64,000 nt of DNA, taken from the NCBI GenBank assembly GCA_964497715.1, contig CAZCDH010000001.1, positions 25,343 through 89,342 on the forward strand. Direction: 5' to 3'. This stretch comes from Candidatus Woesearchaeota archaeon. Its GTDB lineage: Archaea > Nanobdellota > Nanobdellia > SCGC-AAA011-G17 > PNOQ01. Below, piece after piece: positions 1 through 5,327 of the stretch; position 1 is the stretch's first letter, and each line of letters opens with the position of its first letter. The position numbers were made by a program, and so were the translations under genes. The notes beneath the pieces are model-generated. The model saw only the letters and a list, made by a program, of their open reading frames with translations. It was not told the DNA's origin and did no database searches.

Positions 1-686
1 GTTGGACCTCTCGAAGTTATGTCTTCTGTGAAAGTTGCATTTACTCTACTTCCGTCAGGTAGTGCACCATCCAGCAAAGGTGTAGCGTATGAAACATACT
101 GTCCGCACTTTTGAGCCAGTTTTTCAACAAAAGATGCTAACTCACCCATTTTAGTATATTTTACAGAGGTTTTTAAATTTCTGAATTTTCTGTGAACTAT
201 GAAAAGTGGAAACTCTGCACCATTACATTCTATATCTTCAATTAGTTGATCTTGCATTAAAGGTTCTATTCTTCCGAGTCCTACAAAATCTCTATAAATA
301 TAATACATAATTTTCAAATAGGATTCCTTAGTTAGAGTTATACGTAATTCGTTTAGGAGCACTCTAACATTTTTTTCTAAATATTCTATCACTGCCTCGC
401 CTTTTTTAACAGCTAAATAACTTATATTGATTAATTCCCTAACACCTTCTTCAATTAGATTTAGAACTTTCTTTTCCTTTGGCGTTAACTCTGGTTCCCC
501 TACTGTGTAAATTACTTCTTTTTGTTTCTCATCCCAATAGATATGGGCATAAGCGTAAGGTGCTATGAGTGCATATTTGACATTGATTTTTTCTTTTTCA
601 ACATCTTTGAAAACTGGTAATTTTGGTACAAGGTCTAGTTTAAATATTGTTTTCTCTTTTTTGTCTAGTTTTGGCAAATTTTTCAT
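1..686 (-). CDS. Type IV pilus/archaellum assembly ATPase (FlaI/PilB/VirB11 family), N-terminal part; the C-terminus runs off the window start.
   Basis: Hand translation of the minus strand from the ATG at 686-684 gives MKNLPKLDKKEKTIFKLDLVPKLPVFKDVEKEKINVKYALIAPYAYAHIYWDEKQKEVIYTVGEPELTPKEKKVLNLIEEG...MQDQLIEDIECNGAEFPLFIVHRKF...LAQKCGQYVSYATPLLDGALPDGSRVNATF. These are the N-terminal domain motifs of archaeal FlaI/GspE-type ATPases (YxxIxYDEK, YxVxEPxLTxEE, EDIxCNG, PxLDAxLPDGSRV). The ORF was not in the supplied track because it runs off the window. Its TAATG junction couples it to the upstream pilin gene. Confidence 0.75.
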   Translation of the reverse strand, partial: MKNLPKLDKKEKTIFKLDLVPKLPVFKDVEKEKINVKYALIAPYAYAHIYWDEKQKEVIYTVGEPELTPKEKKVLNLIEEGVRELINISYLAVKKGEAVIEYLEKNVRVLLNELRITLTKESYLKIMYYIYRDFVGLGRIEPLMQDQLIEDIECNGAEFPLFIVHRKFRNLKTSVKYTKMGELASFVEKLAQKCGQYVSYATPLLDGALPDGSRVNATFTEDITSRGP

Positions 687-1189
687 TATGATAAATCCTC
701 CAAGTGGATTTCATTATTTCCTCTGTTCTGGATAGCTATTCTGTGTTTCCCAGAGATTGGAAGAAATCCATCATAAGTTATATTGATTGAAGTGGTAGAG
801 TAGTCTAGCTCTAAACTAACCAAGTAATGGTCCCCTTCTTTTAGTGTTAATAATCTTAGATTCCCATGTTCGATAGTGATACCAGGTTCTGATAGAAGTG
901 CTGAGGTTTCCATATCCCATTTAATCTTTTCACCACCTGTGTCAATGTCAAATATCCCTTCACTAATTCCCATACTTATTACATCTGAGGCTCCTGGCCC
1001 TTGATTGTTTACTGATCTTATTACTCCATCTAAATTAGATAGTAGTTCTTCTGTTTGAATTAGAGTATGCCTGTCCCTCATCTTCTCTATAACTGGCATA
1101 CCAACTGCTAGAATTAAAGTTATTATTACTATTCCGAGTGCCATGTATAGCACTGCCGATATCCAAATTTGTCCTTTCCTCTTTTTCAT
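686..1189 (-). CDS. Class III signal-peptide (prepilin-like) protein, pilin/FlaG-like.
   Basis: The N-terminus MKKRKGQIWISAVLYMALGIVIITLILAV is a basic stretch, then a G|Q prepilin-peptidase-type site, then a hydrophobic helix. It is last in a run of five such genes and translationally coupled to the ATPase. Confidence 0.5.
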   Translation of the reverse strand: MKKRKGQIWISAVLYMALGIVIITLILAVGMPVIEKMRDRHTLIQTEELLSNLDGVIRSVNNQGPGASDVISMGISEGIFDIDTGGEKIKWDMETSALLSEPGITIEHGNLRLLTLKEGDHYLVSLELDYSTTSINITYDGFLPISGKHRIAIQNRGNNEIHLEDLS

Positions 1190-1218
1190 TTTAAAAAAAT
1201 AAAAAAATGGTGAAGTTA

Positions 1219-1683
1219 TTAAAATGTTATTTCTATCCCTTCACCACATGTTACTGCACAATTACATTCTTTATCTATGCCTTCTTGTGTGTATGCTACT
1301 TCAACTGTTGGTATAAACTTAGCTGAAACTGGATCTCCAGATAATCCTGTAAATTCTACAACAGTATTATTGAAAGATGATAAAGTTCCTTGTTTCACTT
1401 CTAATGATGCACCGTTTAAATCATAAACTCCAATTGCATAACTAGCGTCCACAGTATTTCTGTTGGTTATACTTATATTTGCAAGTAGTGTTCCATTAAC
1501 TCCAGTTATATCAAAATTCTTTAAATTCATACACCCAGTATTAGCTTCAATTTTACAACCTTCATCACACATTCTTGTTTTAGTTATATCTTCAATGAAA
1601 CCTATAACTAGAACTGCAAGTAGTATTGTAAATCCTACGATTAAAACTGTTGCAATTAACGGGGATATCGCTTTTTTATTCAC
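1219..1683 (-). CDS. Archaeal type IV pilin (Pilin_N-type class III signal peptide).
   Basis: The N-terminus MNKKAISPLIATVLIVGFTILLAVLVIG matches the archaeal pilin N-terminal consensus (KKAxSPVIATVLLI). Confidence 0.65.
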   Translation of the reverse strand: MNKKAISPLIATVLIVGFTILLAVLVIGFIEDITKTRMCDEGCKIEANTGCMNLKNFDITGVNGTLLANISITNRNTVDASYAIGVYDLNGASLEVKQGTLSSFNNTVVEFTGLSGDPVSAKFIPTVEVAYTQEGIDKECNCAVTCGEGIEITF

Positions 1684-1769
1684 TCTCTCTTCACCTCCTT
1701 TTTAATCATTCTTAAACTATAAACTTAGTTTAAAATTTGTTTAGTATGTATTTAAAGGTTTTGGTAGAA

Positions 1770-2222
1770 TTAATAACTTACGCTCGAGATTTCCATATTT
1801 TCATCACAGATTGATACCTGTCCTTGTATGACTATTATAGGCATTACTTCTATTTTTGTTGGAGTTCCTATTGCTGAAGAATCGAATGGTACTGATAAAG
1901 GAATTGTCGATGCTTGTAGGACTCCAGTACTTGTATCTACAGTTACTAATGAGTCTCCAGTAATTATTACTTTGAATTTATTTATATCTACAGAACCTTT
2001 ATTTTCTATTTCAAAAGATATATCTGTCCCAACCATGGTTGCAGATCCAAGCGTAAAATCTACTTCTTGTGCGCAACTTTGTTGACCTGTTAATCCGGGT
2101 TTATTTGTGTAATCATCCATTACTCCAGAGTACCAAAACCATACAAGTATTGCTAACACTATTGCAAATGCTACCATTAGAACTGTTGCAATCATTGGAC
2201 TTATCGCTTTTTTATTTATCAT
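1770..2222 (-). CDS. Archaeal type IV pilin (Pilin_N-type class III signal peptide).
   Basis: The ORF 1770..2237 contains MINKKAISPMIATVLMVAFAIVLAILV. The start was moved to the internal Met at 2222, which places it directly after the stop of the upstream gene (2224). Confidence 0.6.
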   Translation of the reverse strand: MINKKAISPMIATVLMVAFAIVLAILVWFWYSGVMDDYTNKPGLTGQQSCAQEVDFTLGSATMVGTDISFEIENKGSVDINKFKVIITGDSLVTVDTSTGVLQASTIPLSVPFDSSAIGTPTKIEVMPIIVIQGQVSICDENMEISSVSY

Positions 2223-2223
2223 T

Positions 2224-2781
2224 TTAACATACATCATTTAGATCTGGATTTGAATCTGTAATCTCTAATTTCTGATCCGGACAGTACATCACCTCATCAT
2301 CTATCTTTATCCACGCAATTATATTAACTTTTTTTACTGTATCAGTTAATGCAATTAGATTGACATCATAACATTCCTTATAGACCATTGAATCTGTTCC
2401 TGTTATCGGATCCATATCTCCCCCTATGCTCAGATTGAATTGATCGGACTCACCAGGTTGCAAACCTAGAGTTGTTGGCCCTGCATAAAGATCCAAACAC
2501 CATTGTTCTGCTATAGTTGCTGTCTCTCTACCTATTGTGTATCTCCAGATTTTAAAGTTACCGGTATTTGTTACATTGAAATTGATTGTTTTATCATCTG
2601 TTGCCCTACAAACCTCATTTATAGATAGCCTCACATCTTTACAATAAGTTTCTGGACCTGGTCCCGCAATATTAATGTCTCCCATTTCATCTATTATCCA
2701 GAGACTTATTCCTGTTCCCATAGCAACTGCAAACCCAAATAATAATATCCAGCTGATTAGTGGAGATATTCCCTTTTTCAT
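2224..2781 (-). CDS. Archaeal pilin-like protein with class III signal peptide.
   Basis: The N-terminus MKKGISPLISWILLFGFAVAMGTGISLWI has the KKG|ISPLI prepilin-type cleavage motif. Confidence 0.55.
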   Translation of the reverse strand: MKKGISPLISWILLFGFAVAMGTGISLWIIDEMGDINIAGPGPETYCKDVRLSINEVCRATDDKTINFNVTNTGNFKIWRYTIGRETATIAEQWCLDLYAGPTTLGLQPGESDQFNLSIGGDMDPITGTDSMVYKECYDVNLIALTDTVKKVNIIAWIKIDDEVMYCPDQKLEITDSNPDLNDVC

Positions 2782-2782
2782 T

Positions 2783-3478
2783 TTATGATGAAATAATCTG
2801 TTGGAGCACTCCTATAAATCTTTCTCCAAAAGTTTCTTCCCCTCCTCTTAATTTTGATCGCGGTGTCCAAGTTTCGTCACCTGTTCCAAGATTTATTACC
2901 TCTTCTCCAGAAGCAGTTCGTATTATAACTTTGAAGTCTGGACCGCCGCTTAAATTGAAATTATGTAAAAATCCACTAATAGATAGGTTCATTTGTTCCC
3001 CTGCAGCCCCAGATTGAGTGTACCAAGTTTTTCCTAAATCTCCAACAGATGTAGGAGTTTGGTGGGCAAAATCTTTGCCTCCGACTTCTAGAGTTATTGT
3101 TTGATTAATTACTTGACTTGTTGGAAAAATTATAGAATTACCATAATTTATAGTAGTCTCATCAAGATAATTAGAAACAGTTACATTTGTACCATTGCTG
3201 AAAACATAAACAAGTTCAACATGTGGATCTCTTTGTTTTGCATATTCTAAAAAAGACTTTGTGAAATTATCCAGTTTGTCTTCAATATTTTCAACATCTT
3301 CATCTTCTATCGCATAGTTTATTATCTTTGTAGATTCAGTTATATAATTCTGAGATAGGTCATCAAAATCTTCAAAAAGAATACTTTTTCTTAGAGTGTT
3401 TGATTCCATTGTGATAGCATATGTTGCCATAGCTAAAACTAAAACTGTGATTATGTAAAACTGGCCCCTTTTATTCAT
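2783..3478 (-). CDS. Pilin-like protein with class III signal peptide (KRG|Q); first gene of the pilus operon.
   Basis: The N-terminus is MNKRGQFYIITVLVLAMATYAITM. The Asn/Ser/Thr-rich mature part has N-x-S/T sequons typical of glycosylated archaeal pilins. Confidence 0.5.
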   Translation of the reverse strand: MNKRGQFYIITVLVLAMATYAITMESNTLRKSILFEDFDDLSQNYITESTKIINYAIEDEDVENIEDKLDNFTKSFLEYAKQRDPHVELVYVFSNGTNVTVSNYLDETTINYGNSIIFPTSQVINQTITLEVGGKDFAHQTPTSVGDLGKTWYTQSGAAGEQMNLSISGFLHNFNLSGGPDFKVIIRTASGEEVINLGTGDETWTPRSKLRGGEETFGERFIGVLQQIISS

Positions 3479-3494
3479 AGAGTAATTATTAATT

Positions 3495-3520
3495 TCACTT
3501 ATATAAATATCTTTTTGTTT
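3495..3520 (-). promoter_or_regulatory. Candidate archaeal TATA box/BRE for the pilin operon.
   Basis: The AT-rich element cttatataaatat lies about 25-35 nt upstream of the ATG at 3478. That spacing fits a leaderless archaeal transcript. Confidence 0.3.
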
Positions 3521-3542
3521 TAAAAGCCTTGAGAACTTATAA

Positions 3543-3614
3543 AGCCCGCGAGGGGATTTGAACCCCCGACCTCAGCCTTACCATGGCTACGCTCTACCTC
3601 TGAGCCACGCGGGC
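3543..3614 (-). tRNA. tRNA-Thr (anticodon GGU).
   Basis: The reverse complement GCCCGCGTGGCTCAGAGGTAGAGCGTAGCCATGGTAAGGCTGAGGTCGGGGGTTCAAATCCCCTCGCGGGC folds as a cloverleaf. It has a 7-bp acceptor, a GGTTCAAATCC T-arm, the anticodon loop AUGGUAA (so GGU), and no encoded CCA. Confidence 0.8.
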
Positions 3615-4235
3615 AATTTTTGATAAATGTCTTTTGTTAGAAAATCCAATTAATTTCATCCATCTTCTTAATTGTTTATGACCATAGATCTCTATCGAAT
3701 AACAATCATTATGATTTGGATTTTTATAGTTTCTCTTATAGCTATATATTTTAAAATCTTTCGATAAATAAGTCATTAATTGACTATGTAACCTTTTACT
3801 AATTGTATGAAATATTATTCTAGGATAAGGTTTATTGTATCTTTTTCTTTTGTCTAAAAATACTCCACCATCTGTATCGAATAAACCTCTTATTAAAGCA
3901 TGTAAATTTTTTTTATTATCAAATATTTTATCAGGAATATAAATTATTTTTGCTTTTTTGTTTGAATTTAAGTTGAAAAACAACTTTAAAAAATAATATA
4001 ATCTCTTTGAATAGATATTAACTCTAATTGCGTTTTTTCCATTAACTTTCTTAATAGATGTTTTTGCCATAAATAATTTATTTATTGTTGGCCCAATAGT
4101 TTTCGCATAATATTCCAGATCTAATGTTGAATCTCCAGAAAATTGAATAAGATAGTTACATCCTTTTGAGTTATAAGTGCACCCATCTCCCATGTATGCT
4201 CCAATAACCTCGCATAAATCTTCAGTTAATTCCAT
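3594..4235 (-). CDS. LAGLIDADG homing endonuclease, double-motif single-chain type.
   Basis: It carries two LAGLIDADG motifs, LCEVIGAYMGDGC and LIRGLFDTDGGVF, and is 213 aa long. Its last 21 nt (3594-3614) overlap the 5' acceptor/D-arm of tRNA-Thr. Confidence 0.75.
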   Translation of the reverse strand: MELTEDLCEVIGAYMGDGCTYNSKGCNYLIQFSGDSTLDLEYYAKTIGPTINKLFMAKTSIKKVNGKNAIRVNIYSKRLYYFLKLFFNLNSNKKAKIIYIPDKIFDNKKNLHALIRGLFDTDGGVFLDKRKRYNKPYPRIIFHTISKRLHSQLMTYLSKDFKIYSYKRNYKNPNHNDCYSIEIYGHKQLRRWMKLIGFSNKRHLSKIARVAQR

Positions 4236-4303
4236 ATAATAAAACTAGAAATTCATTTTATATACTCTTTTAGTGGCCTTGACATCATGACAAAATTAAA
4301 AAA

Positions 4304-4389
4304 TGAGGAAGAAGGGATTTGAACCCTCGTAGGCACTAAGCCACAGGATTTTAAGTCCTGCCCGTTTGACCAGACTCCGGCACCTCCTC
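4304..4389 (-). tRNA. tRNA-Leu (anticodon UAA).
   Basis: The reverse complement GAGGAGGTGCCGGAGTCTGGTCAAACGGGCAGGACTTAAAATCCTGTGGCTTAGTGCCTACGAGGGTTCAAATCCCTTCTTCCTCA has a long variable arm and the anticodon loop CUUAAAA (UAA). Confidence 0.75.
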
Positions 4390-4433
4390 ATATCGTAAGT
4401 TATAATCTGAAAACAGTTTATAAGATTTACTGA

Positions 4434-5327
4434 TTAGTGATGTTGTGCGTGTAAGTGCACACTTAGAAAATCTTTAAATTTTGATATGGAATATATAAGA
4501 GTTATACCTCCAATAACAATTAAACTACCTCCAATTATCATCTGTTCAGTTAATCTTTCTCCAAGAAAAATTGCTGCAAATATTATTGCTGAGATAGGAG
4601 TGATAGATAATTGCATTATTGCAGTTGTATCTGTACTTATATCTTTTAGTCCGAATGCTAAGAGTGTGTAAGGAATCGCAGTTAGAACTCCTCCTACAAA
4701 CACCATATGAGGCAGCACTGATATAATATCTCCAAATCCAAAGATCAATAATGTAGGGGCTAGAAAGAGGGTTGCAAATAACAATGCCCAAGCTATTGAA
4801 CTAGATCTATGACGTGTACCTTCATATTTCATATATACTAATAACGCCGCATGACATATGGAATTTAGTATTGCTATCAATACTCCCTTAAAACTTCCTG
4901 CCAAATTTAAAGGATTTAGTATAATTAATCCTGCTAAGATTAATATCATTGATATGACTTGCCGTTTTCTAAGTTTTTCTTTTAAAAATAAAAATGCAAA
5001 AAGTACTACAAAAAATACATAAGTTGATGTAATCAAAACTGCACTAGAAACCTCGATAAAAGACACTGCATATACAAACGAACTGATTGATGCAGCTAAA
5101 AAAAATCCAGAGATTGCAAATAGCTTGAGATCCTTTAATTTAACTTTGTAAAAATCTGGATCTATAAGAGGCAATACAATAAACAAGAATATTGTCCCAA
5201 TAAATAATCTGTAGAATGTAAATGTAAATGGATGGAGTGCATCTCCCACTAATTTTACTATAATCCCAACAAGTGCTACAAGAATGCTAGAGATTACTAT
5301 CGCCAACTTTTGTTGTTTATTTCTCAT
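4434..5327 (-). CDS. EamA/DMT-family transporter (about 10 TM helices).
   Basis: The 297-aa polytopic membrane protein shows duplicated 5-TM halves of the EamA type. Confidence 0.55.
   Translation of the reverse strand: MRNKQQKLAIVISSILVALVGIIVKLVGDALHPFTFTFYRLFIGTIFLFIVLPLIDPDFYKVKLKDLKLFAISGFFLAASISSFVYAVSFIEVSSAVLITSTYVFFVVLFAFLFLKEKLRKRQVISMILILAGLIILNPLNLAGSFKGVLIAILNSICHAALLVYMKYEGTRHRSSSIAWALLFATLFLAPTLLIFGFGDIISVLPHMVFVGGVLTAIPYTLLAFGLKDISTDTTAIMQLSITPISAIIFAAIFLGERLTEQMIIGGSLIVIGGITLIYSISKFKDFLSVHLHAQHH

Follow-up and report, generated by a model that had tools for sequence, protein, structure and literature searches.

SegB of phage T4 is a free-standing homing endonuclease of the GIY-YIG type that resides in the T4 transfer RNA (tRNA) gene cluster; its recognition site contains the conserved TψC stem-loop motif of tRNA, and its homing carries the endonuclease gene along with the neighbouring tRNA genes, with loss of the tRNA-region markers of the recipient (PMC2330249). 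Judged by analogy, SegB is the closest functional counterpart of the element that we describe here, a 761-bp cassette in which a gene for a LAGLIDADG homing endonuclease is fused to a gene for tRNA-Thr. The cassette lies in a stretch of 64,000 nucleotides (nt) from a Candidatus Woesearchaeota archaeon (assembly GCA_964497715.1, contig CAZCDH010000001.1, positions 25,343 to 89,342; hereafter the window). Like SegB, the window enzyme is free-standing within a tRNA cluster, and the adjacent tRNA-Thr has been exchanged together with the open reading frame (ORF). The cassette is not a member of the SegB family, since its enzyme has a LAGLIDADG fold and resides in a cellular archaeon, whereas SegB is a GIY-YIG enzyme of a phage. 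Moreover, SegB is not tied to one amino-acid tRNA family and shows no ORF/tRNA fusion, split remnants of an overwritten tRNA are unreported for it, and its activity has been shown experimentally, while that of the window enzyme is one that we infer.

The window enzyme shares the monomeric double-LAGLIDADG fold, the catalytic Asp pair and the LAGLIDADG_3 domain with I-Tsp061I, I-DmoI, PI-PfuI and PI-SceI. Those enzymes, however, sit inside rRNA introns or inteins and are made harmless by splicing, whereas the window enzyme has neither intron nor intein and brings a replacement gene. Integrative elements of the SSV and P4 type insert in a tRNA gene, carry a partial copy that restores the tRNA and leave a displaced partial tRNA behind; they use site-specific recombinases and are kilobases long, in contrast to the units considered here, which have no integrase, measure 0.76–1.3 kb and encode the LAGLIDADG nuclease as their only protein. 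Free-standing endonuclease ORFs of mitochondria (for example, at Allomyces atp6) are fused in frame to a duplicated host-gene end, restoring the gene and leaving a fragment, but these cases concern organelle protein genes, usually involve GIY-YIG or other LAGLIDADG families, and duplicate only part of the gene. Finally, synthetic Cleave-and-Rescue (ClvR) elements use an engineered Cas9 and guide RNA at a separate locus in sexual eukaryotes (PMC6442612). In ClvR, a nuclease disrupts an endogenous essential gene and is tightly linked to a complete copy of it (PMC6442612); likewise, the endogenous tRNA-Thr has been destroyed here, leaving a 12-nt stump in the window and split remnants without nt 16–35 in relatives, and the linked copy is predicted to be resistant. 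Unlike ClvR, the window element is natural, protein-guided and inserted in the target gene itself. No description of an association between LAGLIDADG enzymes and tRNA-Thr in DPANN archaea or Woesearchaeota was found in the literature that we searched, beyond which further papers may exist.

Comparison with a sister genome shows that the mobile unit includes a complete tRNA-Thr and that it overwrote the resident tRNA-Thr. The descriptive model, in which a mobile cassette of endonuclease and tRNA-Thr replaced the resident gene, is one that we hold with high confidence. The features of the locus are as follows (all on the minus strand).

3530..4290, minus strand: the inserted cassette, 761 bp; the sister has 67 bp here, which are most of a different tRNA-Thr(GGU)
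3594..4235, minus strand: the LAGLIDADG homing endonuclease gene (213 amino acids (aa), ATG start, monomeric double-motif type)
3543–3614, minus strand: the cassette-borne tRNA-Thr(GGU), complete and without an intron (ARAGORN; Rfam tRNA covariance model, 65.4 bits)
3594..3614, minus strand: the 21-nt overlap of ORF and tRNA, where tRNA-Thr nt 1–21 also serve as the six final codons (A R V A Q R) and the stop codon TAG
4257..4264, minus strand: a TATA-box-like element, TATATAAA, 21 nt upstream of the ATG
4272..4291, minus strand: the cassette's left end, GTCATGATGTCAAGGCCACT, containing TGTCA as a direct repeat, a possible regulatory site
4292..4303, minus strand: the retained Leu-Thr spacer, TTTTTTAATTTT in the window and TTTTATATTTTT in the empty allele
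4304..4389, minus strand (4303–4390 as called by ARAGORN): tRNA-Leu(UAA), a host gene to the left of the insertion and outside the cassette (Rfam, 56.2 bits)
3537..3542, minus strand: TTATAA, a spacer of 6 nt that separates the cassette tRNA from the remnant
3525..3536, minus strand: the 12-nt stump of the displaced resident tRNA-Thr 3′ end, GTTC...TCAAGGCT, which aligns with GTTCAACCCCCATCCGAGGCT of contigs L100, L107 and L122

The empty allele was found by scanning the metagenome collection for tRNA-Leu(UAA) followed by tRNA-Thr(GGU) within 72 nt, which gave 61 contigs with an endonuclease-less Leu-Thr tandem. Three of them (L100, L107 and L122) are contigs of one sister genome to the window organism, carry no endonuclease, and share with the window nine flanking genes in the same order (proteins 84–97% identical) as well as an identical tRNA-Leu (88/88). 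Alignment of the window with L100 using blastn gave two colinear blocks of 3.8 and 3.5 kb (89.3% and 89.0% identity), ending exactly at window positions 4291 and 3529. In the sister, TTTTATATTTTT (12 nt) comes after tRNA-Leu, with the resident tRNA-Thr(GGU) GCCTCGG...CCGAGGCT and TTTTAAAACAAAAAGATATTTATATAAG next in order. In the window, the elements after tRNA-Leu are TTTTTTAATTTT, GTCATGATGTCAAGGCCACT-AAAAGAG-TATATAAA and 21 nt, the ORF fused to the tRNA-Thr GCCCGCG...CGCGGGCT, and, after TTATAA, GTTCTCAAGGCT and the same downstream flank as in the sister, TTTAAAACAAAAAGATATTTATATAAG... lying downstream of the 3′ end of the resident tRNA-Thr (the stump, in the window) in both alleles. The cassette tRNA-Thr and the resident tRNA-Thr of L100 are identical at only 56 of 76 positions. 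The 761-bp insert contains the TATA box, the ORF and the foreign tRNA-Thr; it encodes the endonuclease and the tRNA only, and no recombinase of the tyrosine or serine type. From the sister allele, the left junction can be placed at tRNA-Thr nt 1 or right beside it, and no 5′ remnant lies between tRNA-Leu and the ORF in the window. This is a presence/absence polymorphism at the same site with defined boundaries, as for a mobile element. It is not a difference that a deletion could have made, since a deletion would neither exchange one tRNA for another nor leave a stump behind. Endonuclease-less tandems are also found in more distant relatives that share the downstream pilin-like cluster (L123, L099, L113 and L125), so that the empty state is the ancestral one and insertion with replacement gave rise to the window allele. 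L123 and L125 are endonuclease-less versions of a three-tRNA cluster, and among the closest relatives of the enzyme (59–73% identity), which have the same order of tRNA-Leu(UAA), endonuclease and tRNA-Thr(GGU), some also have a CTP-transferase-like gene or an upstream tRNA-Thr(CGU).

The initial annotation had described a 213-aa double-motif LAGLIDADG ORF between two intact, co-oriented tRNA genes, its last 21 nt (stop codon included) shared with the 5′ part of tRNA-Thr, and had expected a short Leu-Thr spacer in an endonuclease-less relative. All of this was borne out, the spacer being the 12 nt found in the close relative. Both motifs cited there (LCEVIGAYMGDGC and LIRGLFDTDGGVF) are present, and the ORF matches Pfam PF14528 (LAGLIDADG_3; E 2.7e-12, 47.2 bits against a cutoff of 22.5) as its sole domain, with no Hint domain in the Pfam search. 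The Rfam tRNA model spans both tRNAs fully (model 1–71 of 71), neither of which has an intron, and an Rfam scan of positions 3000–5000 detected no further RNA family, including intron families, at E ≤ 1. The gap between tRNA-Leu and tRNA-Thr is ~689 nt, and the 3′ end of the ORF reads AAA ATT GCC CGC GTG GCT CAG AGG TAG. The endonuclease is present once in the window, and the tRNA-Thr at the locus is the only one within the 64 kb. The guanine and cytosine (GC) fraction is 0.21–0.26 within the ORF and ~0.32–0.36 in the flanks, in agreement with a foreign origin. Archaeal TATA boxes lie at about −26, and the spacing of TATATAAA fits a putative promoter for an independent mRNA that would be leaderless or nearly so; equivalent A/T boxes stand before the ORF in relatives.

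Related motifs to GTCATGATGTCAAGGCCACT are found upstream of the TATA box in other short-form loci, namely TGTCAnnnTGTCA (L083), TTGTCAAGGACCAGCACT (L001) and CACTGGACA elsewhere. Repeats of the form TGTCA...TGTCA or CACTGGACA, at times doubled, stand just upstream of the endonuclease TATA box at window positions 4272–4291, at L083:3940–3975, and in L027, L036, L037, L038, L043, L051 and L077; these short repeats could be an operator or part of the element end.

Since the window gives only one instance of the arrangement, its relatives are informative. We took 80 loci from species-representative genomes, out of more than 506 relatives, together with seven loci for the closest homologues, and searched them for tRNA genes by ARAGORN and by nhmmer with a tRNA-Thr profile. 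All 80 loci come from metagenome-assembled genomes (MAGs) of the DPANN type (Woese-, Pace-, Nano-, Iain-, Aenigm- and Micrarchaeota). A match to the tRNA-Thr model adjoins 84 of 86 family members, compared with 2.6% of random placements in the same loci, an association far from chance; one of the two exceptions is cut by a contig end, and the other has a tRNA 286 nt upstream. Across the DPANN archaea, this family of enzymes is devoted to tRNA-Thr genes. The dedication is visible even in the protein alignment, where most homologues end in ...GFSNKRHLxKIA-x-VA*, the translation of the tRNA 5′ end GCC NNN GTA GCT TAG. Three layouts were found, matching clades of the neighbour-joining tree of the enzyme.

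Layout A: a tRNA-Thr(GGU) lies in the same orientation as the ORF, whose reading frame continues into the 5′ end of the tRNA (found in the window, in its subclade and in the ~330-aa long forms)
Layout B: a tRNA-Thr(GGU or UGU) is convergent with the ORF, which extends into the 3′ end of the tRNA
Layout C: a tRNA-Thr(CGU) in the same orientation precedes the ORF

Where a co-oriented relative has an uninterrupted tRNA call, the in-frame fusion is in most cases present too, with tRNA nt 1–3 as codon 1 of the shared part and usually nt 13–15 or 19–21 as the stop. Nearly all relatives have a complete tRNA-Thr of the matching isoacceptor alongside. One MAG has three paralogues, one per isoacceptor (L034 and L060, both on contig JBAZQI010000008.1, and L054 on JBAZQI010000005.1; GGU, UGU and CGU), and five carriers at one isoacceptor (L048, L083, L085, L086 and L096) have an endonuclease-free tRNA-Thr at another.

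Several ARAGORN calls were set aside on inspection. Odd anticodons (Phe-aaa, Asp-atc, Gly-acc, Ser-cga and Val-tac) were traced in the inspected downstream genes to intron-containing tRNA-Thr(GGU), or to a remnant plus the real tRNA, and a tRNA-Gly with an 831-nt intron holding an ORF (L032) resolves into a 5′ remnant, the ORF and a separate complete tRNA. A scan of viral contigs, which served as a negative control for the tRNA linkage, returned only distant LAGLIDADG_3 relatives (24–31% identity) with no tRNA nearby, and it gave no evidence of a viral vector.

At many family loci, the flanks hold 5′ and 3′ pieces of another tRNA-Thr that has been disrupted. In the long forms of layout A, tRNA nt 1–15 (for example, GCCTCTGTAGCTCAG) lie 45–55 nt upstream of the ATG and pass directly into ...CACAAAATATATAAA, a TATA box, while the 3′ piece follows 6–14 nt after the complete tRNA, starting at ~nt 36 in L011, L012 and L020 and being shorter or decayed elsewhere. 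In layout C, the same 5′ piece and TATA box precede the complete tRNA-Thr(CGU), and a 3′ piece follows the ORF in 12 of ~17 loci (start at ~nt 12 to 48, mostly 32–37); in layout B, the 3′ pieces are found past the ORF, on the strand of the tRNA. The left junction is thus at nt 15/16 in layouts A and C, and the right one mostly at ~nt 32–37; across layouts, the 3′ pieces start mostly at nt 32–53, with a mode of ~32–37 and extremes of 12 and 53. In L048 and L067, the stop of the ORF is a TAA at nt 36–38, in the anticodon loop of the remnant. The 15-nt 5′ motif is at its expected place in at least 20 loci, against ~0.4 expected from background frequency. Furthermore, in L010, L011, L012 and L020 the two remnants pair 7/7 as an acceptor stem, and the complete tRNA that they enclose has a different 7/7 stem of its own. 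This pairing means that the promoter, endonuclease and complete tRNA-Thr sit together inside an older tRNA-Thr that lacks its middle (nt 16–35). The unit bracketed by remnants in relatives consists of endonuclease and tRNA only, ~1.1–1.3 kb in length.

Analysis of the protein points to a constrained, monomeric LAGLIDADG enzyme, probably active, rather than a pseudogene, because the Asp pair is kept, internal stops are few and the ratio of nonsynonymous to synonymous substitution rates (dN/dS) is low. Motif 1 (...IGAYMGDG) contains the catalytic Asp17 and motif 2 (...LFDTDG) the catalytic Asp122, each conserved in 87 of 88 family sequences; internal stops occur in only 4 of 88 copies, and dN/dS is 0.05–0.24 against relatives (0.12–0.18 against the closest). 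An AlphaFold2 model built with 17 family sequences (predicted local distance difference test 91.8, predicted template modelling (TM) score 0.90) has two repeats of a helix and four strands, forming the tandem alpha-beta-beta-alpha-beta-beta-alpha fold. Foldseek searches of the PDB with this model returned I-Tsp061I (2dch), I-DmoI, PI-PfuI and PI-SceI (probability 1.00, TM 0.6–0.7, identity 14–24%); a search of the PDB by protein sequence gave no meaningful match, only the fold search being informative. NCBIfam matches were all below threshold and fell on intein-containing stretches of RFC, DnaB and IF-2, which shows kinship with intein-type endonuclease domains and not family membership. Most family members are ~330 aa long and have an extra N-terminal domain (~120 aa; for example, P0020, P0036 and P0069) with weak HTH_3/HTH_19 matches; this helix-turn-helix (HTH)-like domain is missing from the window enzyme and its subclade.

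Cassette tRNAs and presumed targets differ in part in the anticodon arm. The uninterrupted CATTGGTAATG is found in 4 of 4 remnants keeping the anticodon region and in all nine distinct alleles of the CATTGGTAATG class that lack the endonuclease, the syntenic relatives of the window among them. Among the endonuclease-linked GGU genes, on the other hand, ~80% deviate by closing the loop with C31-G39, by A32 or C33, or by an intron that follows nt 37; the anticodon arm of the window tRNA-Thr is CC-ATGGTAA-GG. These differences are weakly suggestive that cassette tRNAs may be refractory to cleavage.

Two further observations concern the linked tRNAs. In a second short-form clade (L026, L027, L032, L036, L037 and L043; tRNA directly behind the ORF, at locus positions ~4615–4735), the tRNA-Thr(GGU) has two introns, one in the region of the D-arm and anticodon stem and the other after nt 37, and is missed or mistyped by ARAGORN. 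Three cassette tRNA-Thr genes (L005:1273–1345, L006:4610–4682 and L020:4607–4678) have C at position 33 instead of the near-universal U, with loops ACGGTAA or TCGGTAA.

Taken together, the explanation that we favour is a free-standing homing endonuclease whose targets are resident tRNA-Thr genes and which itself supplies a rescue copy, and as a whole we consider it likely; for the cleave-and-rescue mechanism in particular, our judgement leans only slightly in its favour. The enzyme would make a double-strand break in an endonuclease-less tRNA-Thr at ~nt 16–37 (D-arm to anticodon loop), a break that is placed between the D-loop and the anticodon loop because of the positions of the remnant junctions. 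Its recognition site may lie within the tRNA gene, to which the restriction of the family to tRNA-Thr genes and the clustering of the junctions point indirectly; an enzyme of this type would be expected to cleave a specific DNA target of 14–40 bp and to leave 4-nt 3′ overhangs. Repair from the endonuclease-bearing allele would copy the cassette in, and the cassette tRNA-Thr would keep the essential tRNA supplied after loss of the resident gene, while itself being refractory to cutting through its anticodon-arm variants or, at other loci, introns. More speculatively, the tRNA may be processed out of the endonuclease transcript at its 3′ end, so that the mRNA would lose its stop codon and enzyme expression would be damped.

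Several points weigh against this explanation. Cleavage, the recognition site, the cut site and the resistance of the cassette tRNA are all putative. The order of tRNA-Leu, endonuclease and tRNA-Thr is kept among enzymes only 59–73% identical and under purifying selection, which long vertical residence or domestication would fit as well as active homing. The remnant in the window, at 12 nt, is short; among its final 8 nt, 2 differ from the resident tRNA of the sister. As for the anticodon arm, ~8 endonuclease-linked tRNAs have the same uninterrupted CATTGGTAATG as the presumed targets, and the comparison, like all others made here, is uncorrected for phylogeny, with an endonuclease-less set drawn by a pattern that excludes most intron-containing genes; nt 8–15 of the D-arm give no separation among cassette tRNAs, remnants and endonuclease-less tRNAs. 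Partner tRNAs of closely related enzymes also diverge strongly (64–84% identity), so that strict co-inheritance of enzyme and tRNA is doubtful, and the two have probably been reshuffled at times.

How well do other explanations fare with the same evidence? An ordinary free-standing endonuclease might have landed in the Leu/Thr spacer, the tRNAs being bystanders and the 21-nt overlap an accident of ORF extension. Clusters of tRNA genes are common landing sites for mobile DNA, the gene starts with an ATG behind a promoter-like TATA box of its own, and neither tRNA is damaged, but the sister allele tells otherwise: tRNA-Thr was replaced (56/76) and a stump of the old one left, while tRNA-Leu stayed unchanged (88/88). 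The specificity of 84 of 86 relatives for tRNA-Thr and the in-frame junction common to most co-oriented relatives speak further against this account, which we regard as quite improbable. The initial annotation, which proposed a free-standing homing endonuclease using a tRNA gene region as its target or landing site, was correct in essence, but it did not notice that the tRNA-Thr is a cassette-borne replacement of the original gene of the host, and it overlooked both the family-wide tie to tRNA-Thr genes and the stump of the replaced one. Another explanation is that of a domesticated LAGLIDADG protein, vertically inherited and no longer selfish, with a host function in the regulation or maintenance of tRNA-Thr loci. 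Purifying selection, the synteny kept in the subclade of the window, the MAG with one paralogue per tRNA-Thr isoacceptor and the HTH-like domain of the long forms all agree with this idea. It is nevertheless unlikely, given a genome with 89%-identical flanks that does without the gene, the five carriers that keep an endonuclease-free tRNA-Thr at another isoacceptor, the remnants of overwritten tRNAs around the gene, the copies with internal stops, the full retention of the DNA-cleavage residues and the foreign composition of the ORF.

The remaining two explanations read the tRNA pieces differently. According to one, which the initial annotation had also entertained, the ORF was formerly housed in an intron of a tRNA-Thr that has since been repaired or duplicated. 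The closest solved structures do include the archaeal rRNA-intron enzymes I-Tsp061I and I-DmoI, small introns occur in many linked tRNA-Thr genes of relatives, and ARAGORN reported the 831-nt 'intron' with an ORF in L032. The last of these, however, is a remnant, an ORF and a complete tRNA; the window has no intron boundaries or intron RNA family, its tRNAs are uninterrupted and the ORF has its own TATA box and ATG. In addition, flanking pieces that lack nt 16–35 cannot splice into a tRNA, the tRNA of the empty allele is intact, without an intron and of another sequence (which indicates a tRNA replacement), and among the 86 family members no ORF was seen between the exon halves of a complete tRNA with a bulge-helix-bulge motif. 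An intron origin is very improbable. According to the other, the tRNA pieces are attachment-site scars of an integrase-type element, with the endonuclease as passenger cargo. Partial tRNA duplications flanking inserted DNA are indeed a hallmark of tRNA-targeting integrative elements, but the window insert spans just 761 bp, with an endonuclease and a tRNA as its sole genes and with flanks colinear with the empty allele on both sides, and the remnants in relatives bracket nothing more than the same two genes; we give this account hardly any credence.

Some observations bear on the surroundings of the cassette and on the wider family. Downstream of tRNA-Thr, five small genes on the minus strand (window positions 686–3478) keep their order in relatives, where their homologues match Pilin_N weakly and a T2SSE-type ATPase gene comes next; this run is probably an archaeal type IV pilus-like cluster. 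Two LAGLIDADG_3 paralogues in the 25–29% identity range lie at other tRNAs: one (L086:5076–5708) runs into the 5′ part of a tRNA-Leu-like gene at a contig end, and the other (L031:1257–2009) ends 61 nt before an intron-containing tRNA-Arg(CCU), so that other LAGLIDADG_3 subfamilies may be dedicated to other tRNAs. L014, L023 and the protein P0109, labelled 'bacterium', Falkowbacteria or Patescibacteria, carry an archaeal-type endonuclease, which in L014 and L023 adjoins a tRNA-Thr with archaeal-style introns; these bacterial labels probably reflect mis-binning rather than bacterial occurrence.

Homing endonucleases normally spare their host by means of introns, inteins or intergenic sites, whereas here a whole replacement gene is fused to the reading frame. 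If the targeting is as proposed, the family would be a natural counterpart of engineered cleave-and-rescue drives, and it would offer a one-enzyme/one-tRNA-family system in which tRNA introns and variants can be tested as defences, as well as a set of diverse natural meganucleases whose targets are readable from the remnants. It would also explain why gene callers report ORFs running into tRNA genes in these genomes, and it would provide a route for horizontal tRNA gene replacement in the genome-reduced DPANN archaea. A more far-reaching proposal, which we put forward tentatively as falling just short of an even call, is that of a natural cleave-and-rescue drive directed at an essential RNA gene in cellular archaea, in which a radiating LAGLIDADG family cuts GGU, CGU and UGU tRNA-Thr genes, replaces them with cassette-borne, cleavage-resistant copies and so drives horizontal tRNA-Thr turnover across DPANN, the anticodon-arm variants and the unusually frequent or multiple introns being devices of immunity against the enzyme. 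If true, this would be direct evidence for the old idea that the disruption of archaeal tRNA genes protects them against mobile elements.

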